From positions 1 to 36,848 of the forward strand of contig JAXHVT010000032.1 of assembly GCA_034188985.1 (NCBI GenBank): a DNA stretch of 36,848 nucleotides. The letters run 5' to 3'. The notes below the pieces were generated by a model that made no database searches, was not told where the DNA came from, and worked only from the letters and a program-made list of their open reading frames with translations. The stretch is from Actinomycetota bacterium (GTDB lineage: Bacteria; Actinomycetota; Geothermincolia; Geothermincolales; RBG-13-55-18). Shown in pieces: positions 1 to 19,309 of the stretch; position 1 is the stretch's first letter, and every line of letters starts with the position of its first letter. The position numbers were made by a program, and so were the translations under genes.

Positions 1-114
1 AACAACAAGATCAAGGTCATAAAGAGGGTGGCCTATGGGTATAGAGATGAGGAGTACTTCTTCCTGAAGATACGGGGAGCTTTCAGGCCGGCTACCCACA
101 CTTCTGGGAGATGA
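1..114 (+). CDS. 3' end of a DDE transposase, ISL3-family-like (partial; gene continues upstream of the window)
   Basis: Frame 1 from nt 1 reads NNKIKVIKRVAYGYRDEEYFFLKIRGAFRPATHTSGR then TGA at 112-114. The NNKIKxxKRxxYG[YF]R block matches my recollection of the conserved C-terminal segment of ISL3-family transposases. Family assignment is from memory and not searched. Confidence 0.5.
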   Translation, partial: NNKIKVIKRVAYGYRDEEYFFLKIRGAFRPATHTSGR

Positions 115-391
115 GCCATAATTGTTTATCATCTTTAAGATTGATATGTAACAGTTTCAAATCAGTTTGTACTGAATCCATGAGCGCGTCTCGAACAGCG
201 TCAATCAAAGAATTACCAATCTCGCGGTAATGGGATTCACCAGCAGTCCTTATAGAAGGTCGAAAGCCGTTACAAATATCATAATCGTGTATTCCAGTAG
301 AAGCATTGAAGTGTTCTATATAATACTTTAGCCATCGAACAAGGGTCGGAACCCTGCTGCTACCAAGAGCTAAAGAATAGACGGCAAGCAC
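92..391 (-). CDS. hypothetical 99-aa ORF; 5' end overlaps the upstream 434-aa gene by 22 nt and 3' end runs into the transposase stop region
   Basis: ORF track only. No motif recognised. It sits in the AT-rich block and overlaps the IS-like end, so it may be a gene truncated or fused by IS insertion, or it may be spurious. Confidence 0.2.
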   Translation of the reverse strand: MLAVYSLALGSSRVPTLVRWLKYYIEHFNASTGIHDYDICNGFRPSIRTAGESHYREIGNSLIDAVRDALMDSVQTDLKLLHINLKDDKQLWLISQKCG

Positions 392-1674
392 TCTTTATAC
401 CAGTAAGGTTCAACACCTGCTGACGGTTCAGTGCTAATCTTCGATGTCTTCGTTGGTGGGCGTGGACAAAAATAGGCATAAGCAAGCTGCATCCCCTTGT
501 CATGATGATCGCTTTCGAGCAACCTGACAATAGCTCTTGCAATATCCCTGGGATCAATTCTAAAGTTACCAATCTTATCATCGGGCCATTTTTTCATCTT
601 GTGGACAAGCCTTGCTAAATCAGCTGGGTCTAAAACCGTTGCGGCCTCTACAATCCCTCGCCTTACCCACTCATTGTTCGAACCAGCAATAGGCTCCAAT
701 ATATCTGCCACTTCTTTGCTGGCGATTGATACCATTCGAACAAGATAATCGATCTCTGGCCACAGGCCAGATAGAACATAACCATCAGTCTGAATCTTGC
801 TTTCGGGGGGATTAGCAAAGACACCTTGCTTTTTAAGTGCAGCTATCCAATATGGATTGTTCAACTTGGAATAAAAAGCTCTCCTCAATGATAGATTTCC
901 CAAACGAGCCAGCGCGGCGCGTACTTGTCCTTCACTTGGGTTTTTATATTTATATTCATTATTTAATACATTCGCTTGATTAATAAAATCTTGCAATTCA
1001 TCATAAACATCAAAGAAAGCCCCTAAGCGATTCCTAAGTGATGCTTCTATATTCTCAAGATGCGATAAAATTTCCCTTTCAGATGGCAAATTCCTTGAGC
1101 GTAATCCGATTGGAATTTTTCGCTTGAAGTGCACAAAGCTCATAAAATAATCACGCGCCGCTTTCCACGGCTTTACAGCTGGATCGTGAGCATCAATTCT
1201 CCCTAGCACTACAGCGGAATCGCGTTGAACTTCCCTAGTTGTTCCCTCGCTTACCGATTGAACTAACTCGCCTACTACATAAAGTAAACTTTGCGGTATA
1301 GTAACTAACTTGGGTTGCCCAATCTCTTCAACTTTATTTGCGTTCATATCTTCTGGCGGCAAACCACCAAAAGCTTCATACTCGTCAACGAGCAACTTCT
1401 GCCGTTCACGCTCTTCTTCTCTATCGCAATTAGCAGGAAGACCGTCCACATCATTTAGAGCATCCTGAATTGAATTCATCAACTCACGAAGACAGTGTCC
1501 TATCAGAGCAAATCGAGCCATTTCTTCGCCAGGCTCTGCAGGAACGGATAGCAGGTTTATCGTCCACCGATATAGGCCAGCAAGCTGAGGGTCTACATCC
1601 TGAAGCTGTTCATAAAGTGATTCCCTTTCTTTGTTCCATAGTTCAATATCTTTATCTGGTTCCATACAGACCAC
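370..1674 (-). CDS. hypothetical protein, 434 aa, second gene of the low-GC ATPase operon (candidate effector or partner)
   Basis: Long ORF in the AT-rich block, same strand as the ATPase gene and ~52 nt downstream of it. No family recognised by eye. Starts at GTG 1674 or ATG 1664. Contains R-x4-H strings (e.g. REILSH), but such strings occur by chance. Confidence 0.6.
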   Translation of the reverse strand: MVCMEPDKDIELWNKERESLYEQLQDVDPQLAGLYRWTINLLSVPAEPGEEMARFALIGHCLRELMNSIQDALNDVDGLPANCDREEERERQKLLVDEYEAFGGLPPEDMNANKVEEIGQPKLVTIPQSLLYVVGELVQSVSEGTTREVQRDSAVVLGRIDAHDPAVKPWKAARDYFMSFVHFKRKIPIGLRSRNLPSEREILSHLENIEASLRNRLGAFFDVYDELQDFINQANVLNNEYKYKNPSEGQVRAALARLGNLSLRRAFYSKLNNPYWIAALKKQGVFANPPESKIQTDGYVLSGLWPEIDYLVRMVSIASKEVADILEPIAGSNNEWVRRGIVEAATVLDPADLARLVHKMKKWPDDKIGNFRIDPRDIARAIVRLLESDHHDKGMQLAYAYFCPRPPTKTSKISTEPSAGVEPYWYKECLPSIL

Positions 1675-1726
1675 TCGTTATCTACATACATTCAGAACTT
1701 ACATATTGCGAGAGCTTGGCAGCCAC

Positions 1727-3883
1727 TTAACATCCGCTCATTTTTAGGTGATGATATTTGTCGTGTCGTTCGATGGTTCCAATTAAGAACTTAGATGACT
1801 CATGAATTTCAGAAGGATTTTTTGGTTGATTGGTTCTATGAGAATAGATATTACAGATATCCAATAGTTGGCGTAGTTTACGCTGCTCGGTATTTGATAT
1901 ATCTGCTTTCTCTTTACCAAAAAGAGCCTTGGAAATATCACCTGTATGAGCAGCAGTTGCAAAATCAACATTGACGCGAAATTTGACATATTCTTCAATG
2001 ATACGACGCATCGTGTTTGGCATATTTAAAGCATCGTCGTCGGAAATACTTGCTCCATCCATCTTTCTAAACTCATCAACTTTTTGATAAAGCCTCATGT
2101 ATGGTGTAAGTAATTTCTCTTTATTAACTGGATGAATGTTGCTAATCCCGCCATGCTTCTGGATTTCAAATAACGAAATCTTCTCGCCTTTTCGCCCGTA
2201 AGCAAGATTACAAAAATCATCCCACGAATGAGTTAGCACAAATATCTGTGCAGTCTCTTGATCTAGCATGCTGCAAATAAGATTTGTGATGTAAAACTTA
2301 TAATTGCCATCAAGACTAGATATAGGATCATCGATAACAATGAGTTTGATTGCATCTTTCAGCTTGCCAGACTTATCAATATGCATTTCGTAACAGAAAT
2401 AGATTAAAGATAGAAGATTCCGTTCCCCGTCGCTAATATCTTCAACTTTTATGCTCGGCCCATCAGTGTGGGTAATGGTGTACACCCCACCACTCAATGA
2501 GAGGTTAAAATCTATATTGAGATCTTTTAATATTGCATTTAAAAACCCTGCGAAATCAGCTAAATCTGACTTTTGCGCCAGCAAATGTTTATTCTCCAGT
2601 TCAAGTTTGATTTGTTGCTCGCGCAATTCTATAATCTGAGCGTCAGCAGCCTCAATTTCATCTATATTTTCTGTAATCGTGTTATTATTCTTGATTTCAA
2701 AACCAATTGCACCTTTTACCAATGTTTCGAGACGGTTAATTTTTTCATTTATATCCTTTGTACTCTGTGCCTTGGCGTCTTCTAATGCTTCCATTGCATC
2801 ACCAATATTTTTTATTGCATTAGGCAACATATTACTGTCAATCGTGTGTGTGATACCCATGTCCTTTATCTTCTTATCAATGTCCTCATTTATGAATATT
2901 AGAATCTGTTCCATGCTGACTGAGACGTCATCAAATTTCACTTTGCCGTCGGTGAGGCTAAGCACTTGCACATAAGTGTCTCTTTGATCAACCAACAGCT
3001 TCGCCACCTCGTAAAGTTCAAGCAGTGACTTCTTCAAAGTTTCCAGTATTTCGTTTGCCTTGTGCTTTTCATTATTTAGGTAAGCGTCCACACGCTTTCT
3101 TATTTCATCGATATCAATATCAGCACCACAAAACTCACATCGTTTCTTGCCTTTGTGAATTCCTATACCACCTTGCAGCCAGTTCACAACTTCGTACTCA
3201 GGCACATCAATGTATTCATATTTTGTTCCGAATATGCTTGCCAGGTCACCAAGTTTATTGTCATCAATTTCCGGCATTTTAGGGAACGTTATAAGGTTTA
3301 CCTGTTCACTTTCTGCAGAGAAATCGGCACTGCCAGTAATGGCATTATAGTCTTCGTTGGGAAAGTTTTTATCTGCATATTCATAATCCTTAACCCACAA
3401 ATAAATTTTTTCCTGAACGGTTTTGTTATCGGGTTTATTATTTATCTTCCTGTTCTTTCCTTTCCTACGCTTTACTATTTCTTTGATCAACTGGTCGGTC
3501 TGCTTAGTGAGGTTCTCTTTAATAACATTATGCTCGTCTATACTTTTTGTTAATTCGGCAACTTTCTTCTTGTTGACATCAACCTTATTCTCGATGTCTA
3601 CGTCTATTGCGCCAAAATTAGAAACGACACCACGAATTCCGGATCTGTCCTCCAATAGTAAGGTGCTCTCAACGTACTCGCTGTTAAAGAATCGTGCCGA
3701 ATCTTTACCGTTGATTTCCAGATACGCTTTTTTTATTCCGTGTGAAAGCGCGCTTTTTCCAGCACCATTACATCCAAATATTATGTTAGTTTGATTGAAT
3801 ATTGCGGTTTTTAAGTTGGACGAAGTTTTCCAAGATTTATAGATATGATTTTCAATATTTTTGACATACAATGCCTGACTCAA
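1727..3883 (-). CDS. SMC/ABC-type ATPase, RloC/PrrC-like (AAA_13-type) with CxxC zinc hook in a coiled-coil insertion; C-terminal ~190 aa of unknown function
   Basis: Walker A NIIFGCNGAGKSAL near the N-terminus. A ~450-aa K/E-rich coiled-coil insertion carries KKRCEFCGADID (CxxC). ABC signature ISDGERNLLSLIYF, Walker B KLIVIDDPISSLD and H-loop FVLTHS follow. TTG start with a GGGAGAGG Shine-Dalgarno ~9 nt upstream. Low-GC codon usage, unlike the rest of the window. Confidence 0.8.
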   Translation of the reverse strand: MSQALYVKNIENHIYKSWKTSSNLKTAIFNQTNIIFGCNGAGKSALSHGIKKAYLEINGKDSARFFNSEYVESTLLLEDRSGIRGVVSNFGAIDVDIENKVDVNKKKVAELTKSIDEHNVIKENLTKQTDQLIKEIVKRRKGKNRKINNKPDNKTVQEKIYLWVKDYEYADKNFPNEDYNAITGSADFSAESEQVNLITFPKMPEIDDNKLGDLASIFGTKYEYIDVPEYEVVNWLQGGIGIHKGKKRCEFCGADIDIDEIRKRVDAYLNNEKHKANEILETLKKSLLELYEVAKLLVDQRDTYVQVLSLTDGKVKFDDVSVSMEQILIFINEDIDKKIKDMGITHTIDSNMLPNAIKNIGDAMEALEDAKAQSTKDINEKINRLETLVKGAIGFEIKNNNTITENIDEIEAADAQIIELREQQIKLELENKHLLAQKSDLADFAGFLNAILKDLNIDFNLSLSGGVYTITHTDGPSIKVEDISDGERNLLSLIYFCYEMHIDKSGKLKDAIKLIVIDDPISSLDGNYKFYITNLICSMLDQETAQIFVLTHSWDDFCNLAYGRKGEKISLFEIQKHGGISNIHPVNKEKLLTPYMRLYQKVDEFRKMDGASISDDDALNMPNTMRRIIEEYVKFRVNVDFATAAHTGDISKALFGKEKADISNTEQRKLRQLLDICNIYSHRTNQPKNPSEIHESSKFLIGTIERHDKYHHLKMSGC

Positions 3884-4073
3884 AATATTCGACCTCTCCC
3901 CTGCACCCTAATGAAGCACGCCAATCCTGGATAGGTTCAGCACTACCATTGCATCTATTTTATCACGACTGCTCTGCTTTAGTCGCTTACCCTGAAAGCC
4001 CGATGCAAGTTATGGCTCTTGGCCTCAAATGCTATCGTCGTCTTGATTAACTTTCGTTCATTATCCCCAAGTC

Positions 4074-4259
4074 TTAGTATTTCCATTTTTCTCGTTCAGT
4101 CGCATCTTCGCACCAGACCAATTCGTCCCCCGTACGAGCCCTATACCTAGATGGCCGACAGCTTAAGAGATCATTGATCAGATTGGCTATATTCTTGTGA
4201 TTACGGTCGTCATCGTCTTTAGACACGTTTGACTCTATCAATCCTTGAGAGACATTCAC
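4074..4259 (-). CDS. small 61-aa ORF upstream of the ATPase gene (speculative)
   Basis: ORF track only. Lies in the AT-rich leader of the operon. No motif recognised. Confidence 0.15.
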   Translation of the reverse strand: MNVSQGLIESNVSKDDDDRNHKNIANLINDLLSCRPSRYRARTGDELVWCEDATEREKWKY

Positions 4260-4264
4260 ATAGG

Positions 4265-4334
4265 ATGGGGGTCAGGTCTCGAATATAGAGTAATTAACCA
4301 GTATATGGAATATATCTCGACAGGCTGACCCCCC
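4265..4334. terminator. inverted repeat GGGGGTCAGGTCTCGA ... TCGACAGGCTGACCCCCC with ~35-nt AT-rich loop, abutting the antiporter stop; coincides with the GC-content boundary
   Basis: Read directly: gggggtcagg at ~4267-4276 pairs with cctgacccccc at ~4324-4334. The antiporter stop codon (TAA on the minus strand) follows at 4335-4337. Confidence 0.35.
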
Positions 4335-6296
4335 TTACATGGGGTAGACGATCACGGCCAGGGAGGCCTCGCTGCCGTCCGCCAGCTGCTCCGGTATCCT
4401 CCCCAGGCAGGACCCGAAGCGCATCCTGGAGACCAGGGTGGACACCACTATCAGGTCCGTGGAACTGGTCCTGGAGACGACGTCGCGCACCACGTTGCGC
4501 CCCAGCTTGAAGGCCTTATGGGATGGCCCCATATCCATACCGTCGAGGTGGGAGCGCAGATCCTCCAGGTAGGACTCCTCGGAAAGCACTATCATGGGCA
4601 CGTTCAGGGCGGCGGACAGGGTGGCCACCGTCTCCAGCACGTCCTCCATAGATCCCTGCGTGCAGCTGTTCTGCGGCACCACCAACACCACCCTCTTTAT
4701 GGCGTTGATGGGATGGCTGATCCTCCCCACCATCACCGGTATCTCGGCGTTCCATAGCACCTGGTCCACGATGGAGCCGAAGGCGCTCTCGCGGTAGGTC
4801 TTCTCGCTGTGCCATCCCATTACTATCATGGTAACGTCGTTCTCGATGGCGGCGTGTAGGATACCGTTGACCACATCGGTATCCACCCGGTGCAGCAGCT
4901 CCACATCGGTATCGGGGTCGTTCAGATCCTCCGCGCCCATCAACAGCTCCATTTCCTCCGACCCGCTGAACCTCTCGCTCTGCCTGCGCAGGGTTACGTG
5001 AAGGGAGAACAGCTTGCCGGAAACGGTGCGGGCCAGGATACCCGCCAGCTCGATCAGTCTTTCATGTGTCCGCGGATTCGCCAGGGAGACCAGTATCCTG
5101 CGGTAATGAGAATCCTTCTCCTCCGGGACAGTGGTGGGTACCAGGCGGGAGCCGAACCTCTGCACGATAATGGAGGAGGTGATGCAGGTGACCATGACCA
5201 TTAAAACACCGCCGTTGAACACCGCCGTGGTAAGCAGGCCCATCTCCACCCCTACCAGCAGGATGGCCAGGGTCGTGGTCGCCTGGGCCTGCGAGATCCC
5301 CCACATGGTCATGAGCTCGTCCCGGCTGTACTTGAAGATCCCCGCGGCGATCCAGGAGGGTATGAGCTTGGTCAGGTAAACCGACATGATCATGATCCCC
5401 CCGGCCAACAGGGTGTTGGGCTCGGTAAACATGGTGGCGGGATCGATTATCATCCCGATGTAGATCAGGAATATTGGGATGAAGAAGGCCTCCCCCAGGA
5501 ACAGTACCCGGTTGATGACCGAGCTGTGGGAGGGCAGAGAAGAATTGATGGCCAGACCCGCCAGGAAAGCGCCGATGATCACGTGCATCTCGATAAGCTC
5601 GGCCAACAACGCCGCCACCAGGAGCACCAGAATTATGAACTGGAACTCGATCGCCCTCCCGGTGAAGCGTTTGAAGAAGAACTTGCCCAGGCGCGGCACC
5701 ACTATCAATATGAACAGAGTGTAGGCGATAAACATCGCGACCTGCAATATATAACTTAAGACCGATATGCCTCCCCCTTTGGTCCTGACCACGAAGGCCA
5801 GCACCAGCAGCGCGGACACGTCCGTGAAAACGGTGGCCCCGAGGGTGGAGGCGACCGCCTCGTTACGCAAGATGCCCAACCGCCTCAGAATAGGGTAGTT
5901 TATGAGAGCGTGGGAGGCGATCACGGCTCCCAGCAAGATGGAGCTGTTCAACTCGAACCCCAGCCAGCGCCCGACGATTATTCCCACCAGCACGGGGATG
6001 GCGAAGGTGAGTATGCCGAATACGATGGCCCTGTTGCGCACCTTCTTGAACTGGCGCAGGTCTATCTCCAGGCCCACGCTGAACATAAGGTATATCAGGC
6101 CGATAACGGCCAGGGTCTCGATGGTGTATTCGGTGGAAAGCAGGTTGAGAACATGGGGCCCTATGATGATCCCCCCGATGATGATGCCCACTATGCCGGG
6201 CAGGCGGAAGCGCTCAATTATGAGCGGGGCCAGGAGGATGACGGCCATTATGGCCAGGAAGATCGCCACGGGGTTCTGTATCAAGGGCTCTTCCAT
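4335..6296 (-). CDS. monovalent cation:proton antiporter (CPA/Kef-NhaP type) fused to C-terminal tandem universal-stress-protein-like domains
   Basis: 653 aa. About 12 hydrophobic helices with a Na+/H+-exchanger-like N-terminus (MEEPLIQNPVAIFLAIMAVILLAPLIIERFRLPGIVG...). The soluble C-terminal half has two USP-like blocks (VLVVPQN..., DLIVVST...). Confidence 0.8.
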   Translation of the reverse strand: MEEPLIQNPVAIFLAIMAVILLAPLIIERFRLPGIVGIIIGGIIIGPHVLNLLSTEYTIETLAVIGLIYLMFSVGLEIDLRQFKKVRNRAIVFGILTFAIPVLVGIIVGRWLGFELNSSILLGAVIASHALINYPILRRLGILRNEAVASTLGATVFTDVSALLVLAFVVRTKGGGISVLSYILQVAMFIAYTLFILIVVPRLGKFFFKRFTGRAIEFQFIILVLLVAALLAELIEMHVIIGAFLAGLAINSSLPSHSSVINRVLFLGEAFFIPIFLIYIGMIIDPATMFTEPNTLLAGGIMIMSVYLTKLIPSWIAAGIFKYSRDELMTMWGISQAQATTTLAILLVGVEMGLLTTAVFNGGVLMVMVTCITSSIIVQRFGSRLVPTTVPEEKDSHYRRILVSLANPRTHERLIELAGILARTVSGKLFSLHVTLRRQSERFSGSEEMELLMGAEDLNDPDTDVELLHRVDTDVVNGILHAAIENDVTMIVMGWHSEKTYRESAFGSIVDQVLWNAEIPVMVGRISHPINAIKRVVLVVPQNSCTQGSMEDVLETVATLSAALNVPMIVLSEESYLEDLRSHLDGMDMGPSHKAFKLGRNVVRDVVSRTSSTDLIVVSTLVSRMRFGSCLGRIPEQLADGSEASLAVIVYPM

Positions 6297-6450
6297 CTAT
6301 CGCCACTCCGTCCCTCGACCATGGGCTATCACTGCATTAACTCGAAAGCCGGCGAAGGCGCCCTCCTGTCTCCGGTTGCCCTCAAGGTAGTTTTTCGCCC
6401 TTCCCACCCGCCAGGCCTTTTAACCGGCGGAAAGGCACTGTGTTACGTTC

Positions 6451-7548
6451 TCAAGAGGAGCGCGGTGTTCCCTGGTGTTCCCGCTCCAGTTGAACGGTGC
6501 GTATGGGGAAGGGTATGACGATCCCCTCCTCGTCGTATCTCCGCTTGAGCCTCTTTATAAATTCGTGCTTAACCAGGTAACCGTCCACGTATTCCCGGAC
6601 GCGGAGTATGACCGTGAAATCCACGCTGAAATCGGAGAAGGTATGGTATCTCATGAAGGGCTCGAAGTGCGGCACACCGCCTTCCACCTCTTTCAAGACC
6701 TCCCTGGCCACATCCACCGTGACCTCCTCCACCTTCTCCAGGTCGCTGTCGTAGGCCACTCCGGCCTCGAACAGCAGCGACATCTCTTTCACCGGCCGGT
6801 GATAGTTAGTGATGATGGCCGAGGCCAGCTTGGCGTTGGGCACCACCACCAGGTTATTGGGCAGCGTCTTGACCGTACAATTTCTCCAGGTCACATCCAC
6901 GACATGGCCCTCTTCACCGGTATCCAGCTTGATGTAATCACCGGGGGTAACCTGCTTGGAGGCCAGGATATACATGCCCGAGAACAGGTTTGAGAGGGTG
7001 TCCTGAAAAGCCAGGGCTATGGCAAAACCGCCGATGCCAAGGGCGGTGATGATTGGAGTGATGGGTATGTCCAGGACGATCAGGATGACCAGGATCCCGG
7101 TGATAACGACCACGATCCTCACGATGTTTCCTATTATCGTTGTGGAGGGAACGGCTCCCTCGGCCCTCCTGAGATAGGAATCGACCAGGCCGGCAGAGAT
7201 CCTCGCCGCCACCAGGGTGATGGAGAAGGCCACCAGGACCAGCAGTATCTTGTTGTAGATATCCAGTATGTCGGGCCTGAAATCGAAGAAACGGGTCACG
7301 GAGTAAAGGCCCACCGTGACCGACCACAGGACGATCATACCCCGCAGCCCATGCTTCACCGTCCCGTAGGTCTCCCAGCCCTTCCTGAACCATATCCTCC
7401 TGACCGCCGTCAGAACCAGCTTCTCCAGTATCAGGCCGAAGACCAGGCCTCCCATGATAAAGGCCGCCGGGATCACGAACTGGTTGCTGGTAAAGAAATC
7501 TCTTGCGTTCATCATACCCAACACCTTAAATAGAAACGTCGCTATCAC
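6451..7548 (-). CDS. MscS-family small-conductance mechanosensitive channel
   Basis: 365 aa. TM helices followed by GGFAIALAFQDTLSNLFSGMYIL...PGDYIKL...G.VVDVTWR.T.V.T..N..V.VPN, the MscS pore-helix and beta-domain signature. Confidence 0.85.
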   Translation of the reverse strand: MIATFLFKVLGMMNARDFFTSNQFVIPAAFIMGGLVFGLILEKLVLTAVRRIWFRKGWETYGTVKHGLRGMIVLWSVTVGLYSVTRFFDFRPDILDIYNKILLVLVAFSITLVAARISAGLVDSYLRRAEGAVPSTTIIGNIVRIVVVITGILVILIVLDIPITPIITALGIGGFAIALAFQDTLSNLFSGMYILASKQVTPGDYIKLDTGEEGHVVDVTWRNCTVKTLPNNLVVVPNAKLASAIITNYHRPVKEMSLLFEAGVAYDSDLEKVEEVTVDVAREVLKEVEGGVPHFEPFMRYHTFSDFSVDFTVILRVREYVDGYLVKHEFIKRLKRRYDEEGIVIPFPIRTVQLEREHQGTPRSS

Positions 7549-7844
7549 CCCCGCGACCTCCGCGAATAACCGTCATTGTTAAAAAACATATGACTCCCTC
7601 ACTCGGTCGCGGGTTCCCCATCTTAATCCTAACCGCGGCGTTTTTCTCGAAAACCGGGGTTGCTAGTATCAAAAGCGCCGCTGAGCCAGTTCCGCAGCCA
7701 TCGTCTACTATTATCAGCATTACCATGGCTGGGTATTCCAAAACATGGCCGGCATCCGCGGGCGACCTCGATTCACGACCTCGGAGGCCGGACGTCGCTT
7801 TCAGCCGCGCAGCCCCAGCGGTCCCGTGCGTGGCCTTTTAACGC

Positions 7845-8285
7845 TCAGGTGGCGTGAAATGTCAGCCGGTAGTTCCCCAGCTCCAGCACATCTCCGTCGC
7901 TGAGTACATACGCCTGCTGCGGGATGAGAGCGGTGCCGTTTACACAGGTGGAGTTGGTGCTATTGAGGTCCACTATATAATACTCGCCCTGCCCGCGTAT
8001 GATCTTGACGTGCATCCTCGAGACCCCCCGCTGCAGGGCGGCCTCATCCTCTAGGGTGACGTCCGGACGCTGCCCCCTGGCCGGATCGCCCCTGCCGATT
8101 ATGGCCTCCTTATCCTGCTCCAGTGAGTACTCTTTGCCCGTCTCCTCCGACCTCAAATGAACCCCCCTCACACCGAGAGGTGAAAGGTCCCCGGGTGCTA
8201 CCGCTTCAGCCAGGGGTGCACCGCAGCTGTCGCAGAACTTGGCGAAATCAAGGTTGTCGTTCCCGCACCGCGCACATCTCTTCAA
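7845..8285 (-). CDS. FHA-domain protein with N-terminal zinc ribbon
   Basis: 146 aa. MKRCARCGN...CDSCGAP (CxxC-x-CxxC) then an FHA core RMHVKIIRGQGEYYIVDLNSTNSTCVNG...LSDGDVLELGNYRLTF. Confidence 0.8.
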   Translation of the reverse strand: MKRCARCGNDNLDFAKFCDSCGAPLAEAVAPGDLSPLGVRGVHLRSEETGKEYSLEQDKEAIIGRGDPARGQRPDVTLEDEAALQRGVSRMHVKIIRGQGEYYIVDLNSTNSTCVNGTALIPQQAYVLSDGDVLELGNYRLTFHAT

Positions 8286-8301
8286 ACCCTTCTCCCCCTT
8301 A

Positions 8302-9633
8302 TCAGAACTCGGCCCTGAGGGCCTCGGTTATCTCCACCTTGGTGGCCTGACGCGCCGGGAAGACGCCGGCCAGAACCCCGACGACGAAGGCGGCGACGAA
8401 GGCTGCCAGCACCCCCCAGATGGTCGGGGAGGCGGGCAGCACGGTCATGTTGATGAGCAGGGATGCCGCGATACCCAGGGGTATCCCTATCAGCGCCCCC
8501 AGCATACACAACAGGATGGATTCGAAGAGGAACTGGAGGATTATCATGCGCTTGGAGGCACCCTGGGCCAACCTGACCCCTATCTCCTTGGTCCTCTCCT
8601 TAACCGATACGTACATGATATTCGCCACCCCCACCCCGCCGGTGATCAGAGAGATGGCCGCCACTCCGAAGATGAGGGCCGTCAAAACGTCGAAGATATA
8701 CTGGTAGGTATTCATGAGATCTTCCTGATCCTGGGTGTTGAAGTCCTGTTCACCGCCGTGATTCTCCATTACGGCAGCCTCCAGCGCGCTCTTGGCGACG
8801 TCGATGTTCTCCTCCGAATCCACTGCGGCATCGATCTCCAGTACAAGGTCCTCGAAACCCCCCGCCAGGGATTGGGCACCCTTCACCGGAATGTAAAGCT
8901 CCAGGTTGGGGTTATCGAACACTGTCTTGCGGCGTTCCTCCATCACCCCCACCACCTTGAAATCCATCGACTTCTCAGGGCTGGAGTTGGGGTCGGTGGG
9001 ATCCACGGCGGAGAGGTCGACATACTTTATGGTGATCGTCTTGCCCAGCACGTCCTCGCCTGTGGAACCGAACAGGGTGCTGGACACCAGGGTGCCCAGA
9101 ACGCATTCTCCGTCCACCTCGCTCGTTTCCTTCGACCCCCCGCCCCCCTCATCCGCCTTGAGGAAGCGTCCGTATGCCACCTCCACCTTGTTCATATCTA
9201 TGTAATGAGAGTCGGTGCCCTTGACGAAGGTCCTGGTCTGCTTGAGCTCGCCTCCCCCTCCTCCGCCCGTCTCGATATCGTAGACCATCTGGATCATGGG
9301 ATAAGCGTTATCTATATGCTGCATACTCCTGACGTCCTCCAGGTCCTGGATGGTGAGGGTGCTGGAGCCCAGGTTGGGCTGTGAGAGCATCTGTATCTGG
9401 CTGGTGGAGATGCCCTCCGTCTCCGAGACGGGCTCGCCGCTTCGCACTACCAGCAGGTTGGTGCCCAGGTTCTGGATCTCCTTGGTTATCTGGTTTCTCA
9501 CCCCTTGGCCCATGGCTATTAGGGCTATGACCGAGGCTATGCCGAAAATCACCCCCAGTATGGAAAGTATGGCCCGCATGGGATTTATCCTCAGGGAGCG
9601 TAGGGCGGTGCGGAATATCTCCTTCAGGTTCAC
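8302..9633 (-). CDS. ABC transporter permease, MacB/FtsX-like
   Basis: Real start most likely the GTG at 9633, whose GTGA overlaps the ATPase stop. N-terminal TM LRSLRINPMRAILSILGVIFGIASVIAL, a large periplasmic domain, then a C-terminal FtsX 4-TM region (KERTKEIGVRLAQGASKRMIILQFLFESILL...). The long ORF-track extension upstream is a GC-rich read-through artefact. Confidence 0.8.
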   Translation of the reverse strand: MNLKEIFRTALRSLRINPMRAILSILGVIFGIASVIALIAMGQGVRNQITKEIQNLGTNLLVVRSGEPVSETEGISTSQIQMLSQPNLGSSTLTIQDLEDVRSMQHIDNAYPMIQMVYDIETGGGGGGELKQTRTFVKGTDSHYIDMNKVEVAYGRFLKADEGGGGSKETSEVDGECVLGTLVSSTLFGSTGEDVLGKTITIKYVDLSAVDPTDPNSSPEKSMDFKVVGVMEERRKTVFDNPNLELYIPVKGAQSLAGGFEDLVLEIDAAVDSEENIDVAKSALEAAVMENHGGEQDFNTQDQEDLMNTYQYIFDVLTALIFGVAAISLITGGVGVANIMYVSVKERTKEIGVRLAQGASKRMIILQFLFESILLCMLGALIGIPLGIAASLLINMTVLPASPTIWGVLAAFVAAFVVGVLAGVFPARQATKVEITEALRAEF

Positions 9634-10631
9634 GGTCTCATACCTCCCACCGGCCGGGCTTTCAGGGCATCGTCCATGGCTCCCCCGCAGCTTATGCAGT
9701 ACCGGGCGAAGGGCCGGTTGGGGGTGCCGCAGTAGGGGCAGTCGACCTCGAGCCCGACCATCCTGCGTATGATGGTATCGGAAATCCGGGGGGCGACTTC
9801 CAGGGGGAAGCCGCAGTTGGCGCAGAATCCGGCCCGGGGGCGGTTGCCGAAGCCGCACCTAACGCAGATCTTCTGTCCGGCGGCCGGCGGCCCGGCCCTG
9901 CCCCCGGCATCGATCTCCGCACTGGTCACCACCTTGGACCTCACGGCCCGGTCCCCCACAATCCGGCCGTCCCTGAGCTCCACGATCCTTCCGGAATAAT
10001 TGGCTACATCCTTGTCGTGGGTCACCACGACTATGGTGCGACCCTGGGCGTTGAGCCGCTGAAGGATGCCCATGACCTCCCTTCCCGAGCTCTGGTCCAG
10101 GGCACCGGTAGGCTCATCGGCAAGGACGATGGCCGGCTGGTTGACTATGGCCCGGGCTATGGCCACCCTCTGCCTCTGACCTCCGGACAGCTCGTTGGGC
10201 TTATGATGCAGGCGGTCACCCAGGCTCACCGCCTGCAGGGCCCGGGCCGAGGCCTCCTTCCCCTCCTTCTTGGACATGCCCGAGTACTGCAGGGGAACGT
10301 TGACGTTGTTCAGGGCGTCCTCGTGGGGAAGGAGGTTGAAGGTCTGGAATATGATACCTATATGCTTGTTGCGTATCCTGGCCAGCTGCTTGTCGTCGAG
10401 GTCGCCGGCGCTTGTGCCGCTTATCCTTACCGTGCCCGACGTGGGCTTGTCGAGGCAACCGGCGATCTGCAGCATGGTCGATTTGCCGCAGCCCGATGGC
10501 CCCATGACGGAGACCATCTCCCCCTCCGCTATCTCCATGTCGATTCCCTTGAGGGCATGTACCTGGCTCTCGCCCATAGTGTAGACCTTGGTAACCCCCG
10601 CGAGCTGCAAAACGGGATAATCCACTACCAA
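9630..10631 (-). CDS. ABC transporter ATP-binding protein (MacB/LolD type) with C-terminal double zinc-ribbon extension
   Basis: GPSGCGKST Walker A, LSGGQRQRVAIARA signature, IVLADEPTGALD Walker B, VTHD H-loop. The C-terminus adds CVRCG...CANCG and CPYCG...CISCG (two CxxC-x-CxxC ribbons). Confidence 0.85.
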   Translation of the reverse strand: MVVDYPVLQLAGVTKVYTMGESQVHALKGIDMEIAEGEMVSVMGPSGCGKSTMLQIAGCLDKPTSGTVRISGTSAGDLDDKQLARIRNKHIGIIFQTFNLLPHEDALNNVNVPLQYSGMSKKEGKEASARALQAVSLGDRLHHKPNELSGGQRQRVAIARAIVNQPAIVLADEPTGALDQSSGREVMGILQRLNAQGRTIVVVTHDKDVANYSGRIVELRDGRIVGDRAVRSKVVTSAEIDAGGRAGPPAAGQKICVRCGFGNRPRAGFCANCGFPLEVAPRISDTIIRRMVGLEVDCPYCGTPNRPFARYCISCGGAMDDALKARPVGGMRP

Positions 10632-10825
10632 CCTCCCGAAGCATTCCCTCTATCGCTACTGCAGATTATAACAGCCGGCGATGGTGTCAGCCCCCCCAAC
10701 ATTTTTAAGTTGGATGGGGTCGGGTCTCCAGGAATGCCTTGGGCATCATCCCCGCCTGCGTTCATGGCGGGGTTTGTGCTACGAGATCACTCCGTGATGG
10801 CGTTGGTGGAAGGTCTGGTTCAATA

Positions 10826-10848
10826 GGGGCTCAACGGTGTTGAGCCCC
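10826..10848. terminator. perfect hairpin GGGGCTCAAC-ggtg-TTGAGCCCC downstream of the DUF3795-like gene
   Basis: Read directly: 9-10 bp GC-rich stem and 4-nt loop in the intergenic gap between the DUF3795-like gene and the ABC ATPase gene. Confidence 0.4.
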
Positions 10849-10882
10849 TACGATGATTCTATCGGGCCGGAACCTGTTTCTT

Positions 10883-11341
10883 CTAGGTTTTCTTCTTGCG
10901 GACCGGGCTGTATAACAACGGGCCCTCGTCGACCCAGCGGTTCACTCCCACCTTCTTTATCTTCCTGAGGTTCTTGATGTGCGCGTCGCCGTGTACGGGG
11001 ACCAGGAAATCCATCTTGCCGCAGTCGGCGAACTCGCCGCATTCCCAGCAGCCCTCGTATCCCCTCTTGATGGCACACTTAGCGATCTCGCAGAACTTGG
11101 AGCGGCCCCCGACCTTGCAGCCCTTGCACCTCAGCTTGACCAGGTTCCCCATGAATTCATACGCCTCCTGGTACTTCTCGGAATCCATGAATGGAATGGC
11201 CTCGGCCACCTTGTCGAATCTCACTTTTCTGAGCTCCTTGCGCAGGTCCCGTGCCAGATCCGGGATAGTCCCCTCGCAAAAGGAGCACTCCCCACAGTAC
11301 AAACCACAGTAGGCCGTCATCTCGGTGCGTTTTCCCGCCAT
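10883..11341 (-). CDS. DUF3795-like cysteine-rich protein
   Basis: MTAYCGLYCGECSFC... followed by further CxxC pairs (CKGCK, CWECGEFADC). Start probably at the internal Met (MAGKRTEM...). Confidence 0.55.
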   Translation of the reverse strand: MAGKRTEMTAYCGLYCGECSFCEGTIPDLARDLRKELRKVRFDKVAEAIPFMDSEKYQEAYEFMGNLVKLRCKGCKVGGRSKFCEIAKCAIKRGYEGCWECGEFADCGKMDFLVPVHGDAHIKNLRKIKKVGVNRWVDEGPLLYSPVRKKKT

Positions 11342-11357
11342 AGTTGATCCTCCTCTC

Positions 11358-12752
11358 TTATCCACCCTTCGCTTGAGTGCATTCTCTCATGACCCCGGTC
11401 ATAAAATCGTGCTTGACCTCGTCGGCCCCGCGCCACAGGGGCTCGACCTTGCGCAGCCAGCCCCCGAATTCCACGGGATGTTCGGGGTAACGTTCGTAGA
11501 ACCCTTTCAGCCTCGCGGCCGCGATCCCCACCTCGGCTATGGAGGCCAGCTTCCTCGGGCTGAGCTTTCCGCCCACCACTCCCCTGGCTATGCCCAGCAG
11601 AACCCTCAGGGCATCGGCCGGGTTGGACACCAACTCGTATTCCAGGTTCAGGACCTGGGTACCCTCAGCCGTTAGAAGACCCGGCACGGTGAAAAGGTAC
11701 TCTATCTCGTCCTCACCCAGGGAAGCCAGACAGGGGATGACCGCCATGAGAAAGGCGAACTTGGACCCCTGGTCGCGAAAATAACGCAGATTGTAGGGCC
11801 ACAGCGCCTCCTTGGAGAGATCGTCGCGGGACAGGGCATCGGCGGCTACCTCGGCCGCGATGCGGCAGGCGGTTAACGCAGAGACGACTCCCTCCCCGTT
11901 GAAGGGTTTGCTCATGAAGGCGGCGTCACCCACGACCATGAAACCGTTGTCCACCAGCGAGTAGGGCGGCCGGCGGTAGGGCACCCTCCCGATCGTTACG
12001 CTGCTCGCCTCCCCAGCGAATGGCAGGGTTGCCGCGAAAGCCTTGTGCCTGTTTCTGGCGGCATCAGGGCTGGCGGGGCAACCGATTCCCACGATGATCT
12101 CCTCTCCCACGCTGGGGGCGTACCAGCCCTGGGCATGGAGATAAGAATTGATGTCCGGCTCGATATCCCCGACGATATCCCGCCACGACTCCATGTAGAC
12201 GACGAGGGTATCGAGGTCATGGACGGGGTCGTTCTCTAACCAGGGGCTGGAGGGCATAGAGGTCCTCACCCTGCCGTCGATTCCCGAGGCGTCCACGACC
12301 AGGTGGCTCCTTATCTCCAGGTCGCCGTTCTCCCCCCGCGCCCTGAGTCCGCCGGGGAATCCTCCCTCCCTTATCACCTCCAGGAATTCCGTCCGCTCCA
12401 GGAACTCCACCCCGGCTTCCCTGGCGTAGCCGTGAAGCCTGCGCATGAACAGGGGTTTGTACATGTTCATGGTGGGCACCCGGGAGGTAATGCCATGCTC
12501 TCCGCTCGGCGACCACATGGTTATATATTCCAAGGCATGCAGCAGCTCTTCTCCGGAGGGAAGCGGGATACCGGACCTCTCGAAGCCCACCTTCTCGATA
12601 TGAAAGGGCCCGATATCCTCCCCCAGTTGGTCCAGGCTCTTCCCCTCCACTACCAGGCACCTGAATCCGGCCTCCGCCAGCTTCCAGGCGAAGTAGCCGC
12701 CCGAGGTACCGGCACCCACCACTACCGCATCCGCCTCCAGGCTCTCAGCCAT
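11358..12752 (-). CDS. FAD-dependent oxidoreductase, geranylgeranyl-reductase family
   Basis: N-terminal Rossmann DAVVVGAGTSGGYFAWKLAEAG. Central GDAAFMSKPFNGEGV, the GDAAG-type FAD motif of GG-reductase-like enzymes. 464 aa. Confidence 0.8.
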   Translation of the reverse strand: MAESLEADAVVVGAGTSGGYFAWKLAEAGFRCLVVEGKSLDQLGEDIGPFHIEKVGFERSGIPLPSGEELLHALEYITMWSPSGEHGITSRVPTMNMYKPLFMRRLHGYAREAGVEFLERTEFLEVIREGGFPGGLRARGENGDLEIRSHLVVDASGIDGRVRTSMPSSPWLENDPVHDLDTLVVYMESWRDIVGDIEPDINSYLHAQGWYAPSVGEEIIVGIGCPASPDAARNRHKAFAATLPFAGEASSVTIGRVPYRRPPYSLVDNGFMVVGDAAFMSKPFNGEGVVSALTACRIAAEVAADALSRDDLSKEALWPYNLRYFRDQGSKFAFLMAVIPCLASLGEDEIEYLFTVPGLLTAEGTQVLNLEYELVSNPADALRVLLGIARGVVGGKLSPRKLASIAEVGIAAARLKGFYERYPEHPVEFGGWLRKVEPLWRGADEVKHDFMTGVMRECTQAKGG

Positions 12753-12899
12753 GACAACCTCCTTCGGACAGGATCACCCAAGATCGGTACCCGATCAATT
12801 CATTTTAGCAGAGAGGTACGGGGTTTGAGCCCGCGATTCAGGATGAAAGCAAGCGCCACGTGTATCATATCTACAATGAAAAGATAAAGACGACCTGAT

Positions 12900-14348
12900 A
12901 TGGATTTAAACAAGGAGTCCGTGACAAAGAAAGGTATTAAAATGAATCACATGCGTTGGTGGCGTATTGCTTCCATGGTTACCATGATCGTATTCATTGT
13001 GACGCTTCTTCAATTCTGCGTGGGCTGCGGACAGGAAGAAGAGCATGCCGATGTGATCGTGATAGGGGCCGGACTCTCCGGGCTTTCCGCCTCGCTCGCT
13101 CTGGCTGAGAACGGCGTTGATGTTCTACTCCTGGAAAAGGAGAACCGGGTGGGCGGAAAGCTCTACTCCACACCTCTGGGCGGCGTCGCCTGCAACCTTG
13201 GGGCGCAGTGGTTGTTCACAGGTATGAGCCCACTCATAGATCCGTATATCACTGAGCTTCCCCTGCAGGAGATCGATAAGAACGGGGCGGTATGGGACGG
13301 CAAGCTCGTTGATATCAGCGGAGAGGATTTCGTCGAGGAACTGCCGATATCGGACGAGGCCAAGGAGGACTTCATCGCCTGTATGGAAAAGATCGCCTCG
13401 GATGCACAATCCCTCTTCGAAACCAGGGACTTCCCTTTCGATAAGGAACCCGAGGATGATCTCTGGAACGCCCTCGAAAGCCATACGGTTGCGGACTACC
13501 TCTCCGTCTATCATCCGGACGTAACCAGGTTCTGGAATGCTCAGTTGGGACCGGAAGCGGGTGGAACCGCCGAGGATCTATGCGCCCTGCTGCTGGTAGC
13601 CTGGTGTGGGGATACGCCCGAGATACCCATGGCGCTCACGCAAGGTGGCAACCAGGAGCTGGCCGAGAGGGTGCTCGAGGACTGCGAGAAATCCAGCGTA
13701 AGGCTGGTATTGAACTGTGAAGTAACGGAAGTTCAACAGGACGGTGACGAGGTGATGGTTCGTTGTGGCAACGGCGAGGAGTACTCTTCGGATTACGCGA
13801 TTGTCGCGACCCCCGCCGGGGTGGCGAGGGAGATCGTCAGGGACTTGAGCCCCGAAAAGATCGAAGCGCTCGAGGCGATACAGTACGGAGCCGCCACCGA
13901 GGTCGGTATGCAGGTGAAGAACCTCCCTTCCGGGGAGGACCTCGGAAGCGTGCTGTTCGTCGGCCAGCCTATCTCCGGCTACCTCAACCAGACCGGGAAC
14001 GTGGCCGGAAACCCGGATACCGGCACGGTTATAAGCGTCTGCGTCGCTGATCCCGAATTGGAGGAACTCTCCGACAAGGAACTGGTCGAGAGCGTCGCTC
14101 AAGAATTGAAGCCGGTAAGCTCGGCCTTCGATCCCTCTACGGATATCATCTCATACTCGATCACAAGATGGCCACGCGCGGTGGTCAAATTCACTCCCGG
14201 CTTTCTATCCAATTACCAGAAAACGTTGAGGGGGCCTAACGGCAAAGTCTACTTCGCGGGGGATTACACCTGCAGTCCCGATTTAAGCGGTGCCGCCTGG
14301 TCGGGCTCCCTGGCGGCGGAGGGTGTGCTCGAGGCCATGGGAAAGTGA
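12900..14348 (+). CDS. flavin-containing amine-oxidase / protoporphyrinogen-oxidase-like FAD oxidoreductase with N-terminal signal/TM segment
   Basis: DVIVIGAGLSGLSASLALAENGVDVLLLEKENRVGGK dinucleotide-binding motif. Hydrophobic N-terminus ending ...LLQFCVGCG, a possible lipobox. The C-terminal GDYT block is typical of amine-oxidase-fold enzymes. Confidence 0.75.
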   Translation: MDLNKESVTKKGIKMNHMRWWRIASMVTMIVFIVTLLQFCVGCGQEEEHADVIVIGAGLSGLSASLALAENGVDVLLLEKENRVGGKLYSTPLGGVACNLGAQWLFTGMSPLIDPYITELPLQEIDKNGAVWDGKLVDISGEDFVEELPISDEAKEDFIACMEKIASDAQSLFETRDFPFDKEPEDDLWNALESHTVADYLSVYHPDVTRFWNAQLGPEAGGTAEDLCALLLVAWCGDTPEIPMALTQGGNQELAERVLEDCEKSSVRLVLNCEVTEVQQDGDEVMVRCGNGEEYSSDYAIVATPAGVAREIVRDLSPEKIEALEAIQYGAATEVGMQVKNLPSGEDLGSVLFVGQPISGYLNQTGNVAGNPDTGTVISVCVADPELEELSDKELVESVAQELKPVSSAFDPSTDIISYSITRWPRAVVKFTPGFLSNYQKTLRGPNGKVYFAGDYTCSPDLSGAAWSGSLAAEGVLEAMGK

Positions 14349-15849: not shown

Positions 15850-17868
15850 TCAGAGCCCTTCCGGTGTTTCGGGTGTCTCGGGGATATCAGTTATACCGCT
15901 GTCCTCCTCCACGGCTACTATCCCTTCTCCGGCAGCCGCACCCGTCGAATCCCTGTTTATCACGCCCATGATCTGGGCCGCCAGCGCCTCGAGTGTGTTC
16001 GCGCCGCCGCCGGAGACCAGGATATCCGGCACGAACCTCTGGCCGCTATCGGAAAGGGCGTCGATGGCGTTGACCAGGGCGGTGGGCGTCTTTCCCAGCG
16101 CCATCACCTGCGCCTGGTATGCCTTGGCCCTGGCCATACCGACGGCCTCCACCTCGGCTCCCCTGGCGGCACCCGTCTCCTTTATATACGTTGCCTCACC
16201 GTCGGCTTCCGCCTTACGCGCTACGGCGTCGTTCTTGTTGATGTCCACGCCGACCGCCGACCTGGCCAATTCCTTCTGCATATCGGCGGTTCCCTCCGCC
16301 GCCTCAGTTTGAATGCGTTGCTCCTGTGCCTCCTTCTGCTTTCTGTAAGTGTCTATCTCCTGGTTGGCGATCTCGCGCTGGGTTAGAACGTCCACCATCT
16401 CCTGCGGAAACACGACGTCCTGAATGTATACGCCCCTGGTCACGACCTCGTAGTCCTCCAGCTTGTCCTTGATATGGTCGAAGGCGTCTTCCTGGACCTG
16501 CTGTCTCTTCTCGATGAAGTCTACGGCCCTCATGGACTGGAGGGTATCCCGGAAATGGTTGCCGACTGCGGCCTGCAACACCTCGTTGACGAGATTCTGC
16601 ATCGTTCCTACCATCGAGATAACTTTCGGAGCCCTGGTATCGGGAACGTGTATCTGGACCTGGAGGTCTATGGCGAATACAAAGCCCTCTCTCGATTTAC
16701 CGATGATCTGCTTCAGCTGCCTGTCGAGTTTATGCGCTTCCGACGATGCCTCGGCCCAGTTGAGCGTGATGATCTCGGTCGGGACTATCTCCGCCTGATA
16801 GCACCTGGGGTTTATCGGATACTTGCCCGTCCTCAAGGGCTCCTCCCATATCCCACGATGCCCCGGGCGGACCAGGCTTCCGAACTTGAATTCGGTGCCG
16901 GAGGTATCTATGGTAGCCAGGCCGACATATGCCTTTATGACGGCTACCTGGCCCTGTTCCACGACCAGCATGGGCACCAGTTCGACGCTCACCAGGAAGG
17001 GATTGAGGTTGTAAGCGCCATACAGCAGCGGGTCGTGCTGTAGACCTATCCTGCCCCCGTTGTCGAGGAAAGCCTGGTAGTCCTGATAGTTATTGTGAAC
17101 TCCGTTCTTTGTTCCCAGCAGCGTTTCTATCAGCACGAGATCCGGGGCGTCTCTATCCTCCGCCTCCTCGATGTCGGAGAATCCCCCCAACCTGGAGGCT
17201 ATGTCCCCCGCGGGCAGTGGGTCGCCTTCATAGGTTGTTACCACTCCCACCATGTCTATCATCTCTCCGCCGGGCCCGGCGGGGGCGGGCTGTATTATCC
17301 TGACTCCAAGCTGGCTCGCCGACAGGCCGAAAGCCTCGGGGGTCAATGAGCCGTGCTCCCAGATATAGGACTGCAGCTCCGGGGTCACGGGTACGCCGTA
17401 TACCTGAGACCTGGTGATGACCAGAAAGCCCACGGGGTGTATCGGGGCGTTGGTTCCCGGCGGAAGCACCGGTCGTTGAACGCCTTTCTGGCCTCCGTTT
17501 TCGACGAATGACGATATATCGCTGAAATTCCCCAGTACATTCTGGTATTCCGCGGATTTTGCCCCGATAGGGAGGGGTTTTCCAACCTGCGCGATAACCA
17601 CCCCGATCTCCCCGGGTGCGACTTGAACCCATGGAAACTTCCCCACCTTATAAAGAATCCAGAATTTCCACCTTATGCCTGGCATCAAGAGATCGGCCTG
17701 GTATCCTGCCTCTCCCCTGAAAGCAACGGGGTTGTCATCGGACAATTTCTTGATCGAGAACCTCTTGGAGACCAACCCTATTTCCGTCTGACCTATTCTT
17801 CTTAGCGATGGGATAATAAGCATGAGCAGAAAAAAGACTGCGAGTAGGACGATGATCACGGTACTCAT
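15850..17868 (-). CDS. flotillin-like SPFH/band-7 domain protein
   Basis: 672 aa. N-terminal TM helix, SPFH-like region, then a long Ala/Glu/Gln-rich coiled-coil (EAQEQRIQTEAAEGTADMQKELARSA...) typical of bacterial flotillin (YqiK/FloT-like) proteins. Confidence 0.8.
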   Translation of the reverse strand: MSTVIIVLLAVFFLLMLIIPSLRRIGQTEIGLVSKRFSIKKLSDDNPVAFRGEAGYQADLLMPGIRWKFWILYKVGKFPWVQVAPGEIGVVIAQVGKPLPIGAKSAEYQNVLGNFSDISSFVENGGQKGVQRPVLPPGTNAPIHPVGFLVITRSQVYGVPVTPELQSYIWEHGSLTPEAFGLSASQLGVRIIQPAPAGPGGEMIDMVGVVTTYEGDPLPAGDIASRLGGFSDIEEAEDRDAPDLVLIETLLGTKNGVHNNYQDYQAFLDNGGRIGLQHDPLLYGAYNLNPFLVSVELVPMLVVEQGQVAVIKAYVGLATIDTSGTEFKFGSLVRPGHRGIWEEPLRTGKYPINPRCYQAEIVPTEIITLNWAEASSEAHKLDRQLKQIIGKSREGFVFAIDLQVQIHVPDTRAPKVISMVGTMQNLVNEVLQAAVGNHFRDTLQSMRAVDFIEKRQQVQEDAFDHIKDKLEDYEVVTRGVYIQDVVFPQEMVDVLTQREIANQEIDTYRKQKEAQEQRIQTEAAEGTADMQKELARSAVGVDINKNDAVARKAEADGEATYIKETGAARGAEVEAVGMARAKAYQAQVMALGKTPTALVNAIDALSDSGQRFVPDILVSGGGANTLEALAAQIMGVINRDSTGAAAGEGIVAVEEDSGITDIPETPETPEGL

Positions 17869-18017
17869 TTCATCTCTCCTTTCCAGACTTAATGGTTAGA
17901 TTGGATATGACTGATGCCCTTAATATCCACCACATGATGAGATGATTCTACCTTAGTACGGATCGGATGTTTGGACTTTTTCACAAGTTATGGCCGGGAT
18001 TGGACCGGCTCCCTCGT

Positions 18018-19006: not shown

Positions 19007-19309
19007 CCTCTGGCCTTTTCTCTCGCCCCCCCAACCTCGTAGCCTATCTTGCAGCCCAGGGAGCAGCCGCTGCAGGCGCTGGAGGAAGCCCTCCCCTCAT
19101 GGCCACCTCCGGCCCGTAGAGGCGGGCTCATTCCTCCTTGGACATAAAGTTATCCTTATTTCGTATCCAAGGAAATCGGGTGCACTATAACAGGATGAAG
19201 GATTCTACTGTCAATATGTTCCTTTTTGATTCAAATAAGACATTCAAACATTTTTCTGACTTTACGCAATTCATTATTGGTGGAGAACTCGATATTCGAG
19301 ATGTGGCTC

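Follow-up and report, generated by a model that had tools for sequence, protein, structure and literature searches.

The stretch analysed here, hereafter the window, comprises all of the 36,848-nt contig JAXHVT010000032.1 (assembly GCA_034188985.1), which is part of a metagenome-assembled genome (MAG) labelled 'Actinomycetota bacterium' at NCBI. Our results indicate that its AT-rich left part, from position 118 to ~4300, is very probably a fragment of horizontally acquired defence DNA composed of two independent modules: an intact gene for an RloC-family protein, which would be an anticodon nuclease, and the dead remnant of a second gene, whose family we call small-big after its ~230-amino-acid (aa) N-terminal part ('small') and its ~970-aa remainder ('big'). 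The fragment would have come to lie immediately 3' of a native CPA2 antiporter gene. The original prediction, made from the letters of the window, had described this block as an operon of three minus-strand open reading frames (ORFs), a zinc-hook ATPase, a 434-aa protein and a 99-aa ORF, and proposed that they might form an undescribed ATPase-plus-effector system. The three ORFs are present, but the 434-aa and the 99-aa ORFs appear to be fragments of a single gene. The apparent novel three-gene system is better read as RloC beside a pseudogene, and it illustrates how a frameshift together with an insertion sequence (IS) can mimic small 'partner' ORFs.

The intact gene (1727..3883, minus strand) encodes an ATPase of 718 aa. 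Judged from its motifs, its Pfam match and the names of its homologues, it is a complete anticodon nuclease of the RloC family, which is already known. We base this assignment on the presence, at the level of sequence, of all the features by which RloC was defined (PMC2610378): the motifs of an ABC (ATP-binding cassette) ATPase, a long insert (in RloC a coiled coil) that bears a CX2C zinc hook, and, towards the C-terminus, an Arg-X3-Glu-X36-52-His motif in which Ser often stands before His. In the window protein, Walker A spans G37-S44, the signature is S484-G-E, Walker B spans L514-D519, and H552 follows. The zinc hook, C249-E-F-C252, lies within an insert of ~440 aa between Walker A and the signature motif, while the C-terminal triad reads R626-x3-E630-x51-S681-H682. 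K43, S484/G486/E487, D518/D519, H552, C249/C252 and the triad residues were all invariant in an alignment of 17 sequences reaching down to 17-21% identity. The predicted RloC-like zinc-hook ATPase was thus borne out by the location of both the CX2C hook and the ABC motifs. The match to Pfam AAA_13 takes in nearly the entire protein and model (residues 25-695 against positions 11-703 of 713, E 1.9e-64). Several homologues carry the JGI name 'wobble nucleotide-excising tRNase'; the sole homologue given this name by NCBI (P0088) is 25% identical to the window protein. The gene begins with a TTG codon preceded, 9 nt upstream, by the Shine-Dalgarno-like GGGGAGAGG (window 3881-3905, minus strand). 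Rare start codons are frequent in RloC genes and are thought to hold expression low (PMC2610378).

Among the PADLOC models, PDC-S06 matched the ATPase best (7e-46), and there was a weak match to the C-terminal domain of PrrC (9e-7). AriA (5e-8), PtuA (1e-3) and LmuB (0.045) all scored far weaker than PDC-S06, and the supposed partner ORFs matched no PADLOC model, the cognate partners LmuA, PtuB, AriB and GajB included, in agreement with the earlier view that the partner protein fits none of Lamassu, Septu, PARIS and Gabija. By analogy with RloC of Geobacillus kaustophilus, and given its family membership, the protein would work as a single-protein abortive-infection device. A Rad50-like ABC head together with the coiled coil and zinc hook would keep the C-terminal anticodon nuclease silent; DNA damage or disturbed restriction during infection would release the nuclease, which would excise the wobble nucleotide of a tRNA, and translation would stop. 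Since the ATPase carries its own C-terminal nuclease triad, no separate effector is needed.

The second module occupies positions 118-1674 on the minus strand. Homologues of the 434-aa ORF were ~240 aa long and aligned to its N-terminal half alone. On one long contig among these homologues (L001), a gene of 239 aa overlaps the start of a gene of 974 aa, and both products could be followed in the window. The stretch 967..1674, encoding the small domain of ~235 aa (all-helical by prediction), was 59% identical to the 239-aa protein. With tblastn, residues 1-198 of the 974-aa protein matched 966..376 in frame -3 (61% identity), so that the C-terminal half of the 434-aa ORF (376..966) corresponds to the first ~197 residues of big. 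Residues 201-284 matched 370..119 in frame -2 (43% identity), collinear with the first match, and mark 118..370 as a second fragment of the solenoid part. Between the two lies the frameshift site at 371..375, CTTTA on the coding strand in place of two codons; five nucleotides where two codons are expected read as a 1-nt deletion. The shift creates the TAG at 370-372 which ends the 434-aa ORF.

Residues 4-433 of this ORF also aligned to residues 1-428 of natural fused proteins of ~1200 aa, with ~50% identity and equal linker length. The 99-aa ORF (92-391) ends in translated IS sequence, and homology to the 974-aa protein stops at 119, one base from the end of an ISL3 element. We thus regard the 434-aa and 99-aa ORFs, from these alignments, as consecutive out-of-frame pieces of one gene of ~1200 aa. 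About 518 codons (~43%) of it are left, in two frames, and ~57% (~680 codons) were cut off by the ISL3 element. As the copy is frameshifted at 371-375 and truncated at 117/118, it is to all appearances a dead pseudogene: an intact member would consist of an N-terminal helical domain of ~230 aa and a HEAT-like alpha-solenoid of ~970 aa, the frameshift would have inactivated the window copy, and insertion of ISL3 at 117/118 would have removed or displaced the last ~57% of the gene. Searches of Pfam, NCBIfam and PADLOC with the 434-aa and 99-aa ORFs, and with a 61-aa ORF further upstream, gave nothing significant; a match to PF0610-like_N was rejected as sub-threshold (20 bits vs. a cut-off of 33).

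The element itself forms the left end of the window (1..117, plus strand) and consists of a transposase C-terminus, a stop codon and a probable terminal inverted repeat. The last 37 transposase codons lie at 1-111 and the stop at 112-114; the contig begins inside the element. This 37-codon tail had been called ISL3-like, and indeed it matched NCBIfam transpos_ISL3 (positions 344-368 of 370, E 8.6e-5) and was 89% identical across 28 aa to annotated ISL3 transposases. Positions 92-117, GGCTCATCTCCC... on the minus strand, are the likely ISL3 terminal inverted repeat. Read from the outside inward, they give GGCTCATCTCCCAGAAGTG... (a GGCTC... end sequence), which occurs once in the window, and no second ISL3 copy was found there. 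The contig of a second assembly, from Logan, terminates at window position 92, inside this repeat, and both assemblies end in the IS. Assemblers typically break at repeated elements. The original prediction had the island start right after the transposase. Instead, the IS is inserted inside the island's own gene, with the junction at 117/118, and breaks into the island instead of marking its boundary; the left edge of the island therefore lies beyond the contig.

Composition sets the block clearly apart, as had been claimed by eye. The GC content per 500 nt was 36-44% across 1-4000 and 47-68% elsewhere in the window. Positions 118-4264 had 40.1% GC vs. 58.8±2.0% for 4-kb windows of the remainder (z = -9.4), and the correlation of their tetranucleotide usage with the remainder was 0.25, whereas native windows reached 0.865±0.033 (minimum 0.795). 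The composition changes abruptly, at 4300-4340. Codon usage differs likewise: GC content at third codon positions (GC3) was 0.376 for the ATPase ORF and 0.366 for the 434-aa ORF, vs. 0.841 for the adjoining antiporter gene. Because GC content, GC3 and tetranucleotide usage all deviate, we consider the block from 118 to ~4300 to be of foreign origin, and the view that its content is of defence type holds as well. An assembly chimera at ~4330, named earlier as a possible pitfall, is unlikely, since the independent Logan assembly of run SRR24907504 was 100% identical to window 92-14296, spanning both the ~4330 junction and the frameshift; the two assemblies come from one read set of the same sample. 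Among the classical features of a genomic island, deviant composition is strongly displayed. A search of the island ends detected no tRNA, flanking direct repeats or integrase marking an integration site, the left end lying off the contig, and no near-identical plasmid DNA was found for the island.

What deserves to be followed up, in our view, is the small-big family in its intact form, which is widespread and unannotated and joins a new N-terminal domain to a DSR1-like solenoid. Its members have one of two architectures, either split into two genes (~240 aa and ~970 aa) or fused into one (~1200 aa). With the small profile, 400 cluster representatives were retrieved (E <= 1e-3; 1.84 billion proteins searched; clusters at 50% identity); the homologues were ~220-250 aa long on their own or formed the N-terminus of proteins of ~1150-1250 aa. 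An XRE-type helix-turn-helix domain (HTH_3, residues ~138-190) precedes small in some proteins (P0212, P0214, P0224 and P0235, each of about 1350 aa, and P0211). The big profile recovered 37 genomic and 71 metagenomic loci. The genomic loci were mostly from Actinomycetota; the few others came from Chloroflexi, Planctomycetota, Verrucomicrobiota, Acidobacteriota, Gemmatimonadota and Deltaproteobacteria. Of the first 45 loci, 42 had small directly upstream of or fused to big; the three exceptions comprised two contigs that start inside big and one locus (L036) with no detectable small. Of the 71 metagenomic loci, many being short contigs, 55 had small. Two further copies seem to be damaged, with small divided between two overlapping ORFs at L019 (2960-3963) and big between two ORFs at L037 (9998-12842), and decay of small-big genes may thus be common.

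Neither small nor big has a relative in Pfam or a sequence relative in the PDB; PDB searches with both profiles returned only designed helical repeats at E > 0.04. An AlphaFold model of the 434-aa ORF, built on an alignment of eight sequences, showed an all-helical small with a predicted local distance difference test score (pLDDT) of 52 and was excluded from the fold search. Small has a conserved pattern, H-x2-R-E-x2-N, together with further H, E, R and N residues. Across 61-137 diverse members, Y32, H57, R60, E61, N64, H178, E206, R212 and N231 (P0004 numbering) were invariant or near-invariant. Such conserved polar residues suggest an enzyme or a ligand site, and that small is the effector domain is our guess. 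We considered whether small could be a HEPN domain, given R54-x5-H60 in the window copy, and rejected it: the arginine is not conserved across 137 representatives and no HEPN Pfam model matched any member at E up to 10. A relationship of small to the RloC nuclease domain was discarded as well (hhalign probability 0.3%).

For big, the best structural match was to PP2A-type HEAT repeats. The PADLOC Dsr1 profile was matched by all 19 big members tested, in its non-SIR2 part (best E 2.8e-17); the match spans only ~150 of the 1227 profile positions, and the region concerned is absent from the window copy. A Pfam scan detected no SIR2 or other Pfam domain in small or in full-length relatives. We found small-big described neither in PADLOC 2.0, Pfam and NCBIfam nor in the papers searched, which dealt with PDC-S06, with DSR proteins and with defences embedded in restriction-modification (R-M) loci.

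The neighbourhood of small-big was examined in a census of two genes on either side of about 36 non-redundant genomic loci. The commonest neighbours were type I HsdR and phage-type integrases (5 loci each), followed by AAA_13/PDC-S06 ATPases (4 loci). The order was HsdM-HsdS-HsdR-AAA_13-[small~big fused] in Cryobacterium sp. GrIS_2_6 (L005), whose fused gene encodes 1209 aa, HsdM-HsdS-HsdR-small-big-AAA_13 in Arthrobacter ginsengisoli (L013), HsdM-(S)-HsdR-small-big in Microbacterium capsulatum (L026) and HsdM...HsdR-YgjP-small-big in a Thermoleophilia MAG (L010). The YgjP-like gene between HsdR and small-big in the latter (8584-9312) encodes a metallopeptidase. In L001 small-big lies near GmrSD and BrxL, and in L002 near an MmeI-type R-M enzyme and toxin-antitoxin genes. 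A 154-aa ORF overlaps the start of small in L001 (9546-10010); it had no Pfam or PADLOC match, and the other loci do not conserve it. A third gene conserved around small-big was looked for but not found. The pattern is that of a mobile, restriction-linked defence module, with the defence role put forward as a candidate on grounds of gene context. Intact small-big seems to be a candidate anti-phage module in its own right, with a build that recalls DSR1 and DSR2 and in which a helical domain would replace the SIR2 NADase. We put forward, tentatively and with less than even confidence, that it is an undescribed anti-phage family, in which the DSR1-like solenoid would sense a phage protein and trigger a new helical effector, backing up type I restriction as a second line and at times acting alongside RloC-type nucleases. 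If so, the sensor-solenoid class would gain a new effector domain, and restriction-linked back-up immunity a further example.

The 434-aa protein had also been proposed as a new partner for an RloC-like ATPase. Synteny did not uphold this, as an AAA_13 neighbour is missing from over 90% of the small-big loci. Nonetheless, RloC and small-big could once have been a co-operating two-gene cassette that was acquired together, in which the solenoid protein served RloC-type nucleases as an optional accessory sensor or regulator, or vice versa. Of about 108 loci, 7 (the window, 4 of ~36 genomic and 2 of 71 metagenomic) had an AAA_13 gene no more than two genes away from small-big, and in five of them (the window, L005, L011, which is partial, L013 and L095) it was directly adjacent and co-directional, with gaps of 12-52 nt. 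These ATPases belong to at least three lineages with a mutual identity of only ~20-30%: the window type, L005/L095 (75% identical, with an RloC-like triad) and L013/L040 (with no clear triad). The recurrence of unrelated AAA_13 lineages beside small-big speaks for the cassette, and so does the near-equal GC3 of the two window genes. Yet, besides the scarcity of AAA_13 neighbours, RloC is intact in the window while small-big is destroyed, and R-M loci attract each of the two families independently, which could by itself bring them side by side.

The relatives of the window protein point in the same direction. In four contexts of its closest relatives (50-61% identical), the RloC relative directly followed R-M or helicase genes in every case, as is expected for a restriction-linked gene; the upstream genes across these contexts were MmeI/Eco57I-type, type ISP, SNF2, PIF1, an SLFN-like helicase and T5orf172. 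None of the four contained small-big, and no gene resembling the window's downstream ORFs stood behind the RloC relative. Instead, a DUF2130 (PF09903) gene lay directly 3' of it in three (L046 9415-10515, L047 9146-10381, L049 8294-9511), where type IIG/ISP R-M or helicase genes stood on its other side; there may be a conserved RloC-DUF2130 pair, which the window lacks. In the light of these data we consider the cassette unlikely, and RloC and small-big are treated here as two modules sharing a niche.

It is also improbable, in our opinion, that small-big is a non-defence scaffold or regulator and the island miscellaneous foreign DNA. HEAT-like solenoids are generic protein-binding scaffolds, the XRE-type HTH at the N-terminus of some members suggests a regulator, no catalytic fold was identified in small-big, and L007 lies among housekeeping genes. 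However, the family has a patchy distribution over phyla, is repeatedly found immediately behind HsdR or beside the GmrSD, BrxL, MmeI-type R-M, toxin-antitoxin and integrase genes of the loci above, matched the C-terminal part of the Dsr1 profile in every member tested, and has invariant polar residues in small that resemble those of an enzyme. A functional, undescribed three-gene ATPase-plus-effector defence operon, which co-directional and closely spaced ORFs, a defence-associated ATPase class and a similar composition across the block had made attractive, is hardly credible, as its '434-aa partner' is broken and forms with the 99-aa ORF out-of-frame pieces of one gene that lost ~680 codons to ISL3, the final codons of the 99-aa ORF are IS sequence, the ATPase has its own nuclease domain, and the neighbours of its nearest relatives differ.

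The preferred reading, two independent modules on a foreign defence fragment, has points against it too. PADLOC places the ATPase in the candidate class PDC-S06 and not in an RloC model, and its nuclease activity is putative. The frameshift is read from assemblies of a single read set. AAA_13 genes occur near small-big above chance expectation, so the two modules may not be wholly independent. Finally, some small-big loci lie among housekeeping genes (L007), and small has a poor model (pLDDT 52) and no detectable Pfam or PDB relative.

Upstream of the RloC gene, positions 3884..4264 form a non-coding leader of 45% GC with no protein similarity to the loci fetched for comparison, and tblastx of 3884-4334 against all loci revealed no relics of an upstream gene. 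A 61-aa ORF within the leader (4074-4259, minus strand) had no relatives in these loci and a sub-threshold Pfam hit to fvmX3 (E 0.033), and is unlikely to be a gene. The inverted repeat at 4265..4334, which adjoins the antiporter gene as had been described, lies at the composition switch and begins one base after the stop codon of that gene (CPA2 antiporter, 4335-6296, minus strand). The hairpin is present but modest: a 9-bp GC stem (GGGGGTCAG/CTGACCCCC) encloses ~50 nt of AT-rich sequence, and the fold of -27.3 kcal/mol (z = -2.16) was equalled by 4 of 200 shuffles. It has no U-tract and was not called by an intrinsic-terminator scan. A promoter and terminator scan of 1-4600 made no more calls than expected by chance.

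The remaining genes of the window are ordinary and include the CPA2 antiporter with a Usp domain, MscS, a MacB/FtsX ABC system, FAD oxidoreductases, a Band_7 protein, a subtilase and a GH5 enzyme. A 250-aa ORF at 18254-19006 matched only domains 2-3 of aldehyde:ferredoxin oxidoreductase (AFOR_C 102-294 of 385) and may be a truncated gene. Near it, the GC content dips to 47-51% in two 500-nt windows (17501-18000 and 19001-19500).

Among known systems, the ATPase is closest to RloC of G. kaustophilus (COG4694, AAA_13), with which it shares the ABC motifs, the long insert with CxxC, and a triad spacing of x51 that falls within the published x36-52. The TTG start of the gene, and the R-M genes adjoining close relatives of the protein, are further likenesses. 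It differs in that the window protein itself adjoins no R-M gene, none being present in window 1-7000. PrrC, a tRNA-Lys anticodon nuclease silenced by the type Ic R-M system EcoprrI, has the same ABC head and triad logic. It is, however, ~400 aa long, has no coiled-coil/zinc-hook insert and is always inside an R-M locus (PMC2610378), whereas the window ATPase has 718 aa, carries the insert and has no R-M gene beside it. The position of small-big after HsdR, shared with RloC-like genes, recalls TgvAB in a type I R-M locus of Vibrio cholerae (PMC11411939) and the Hma-embedded candidates (bioRxiv 10.1101/2024.01.29.577857), although those proteins are unrelated to small-big and neither paper mentions it. 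The nearest likeness in build is to DSR1 and DSR2, which join an N-terminal SIR2 NADase to a C-terminal HEAT-like domain that acts as sensor by binding a phage protein. The small-big N-terminal module is all-helical, unrelated and free of SIR2, it is often a separate gene, and the window copy is a probable pseudogene. In common with DSR1 and DSR2, small-big places an N-terminal module, here of ~230 aa, before an alpha-solenoid, here of ~970 aa; a PP2A-type HEAT match was likewise reported for the C-terminal domain of DSR2 (PMC11850899), and with DSR1 the big family shares a C-terminal, non-SIR2 segment.

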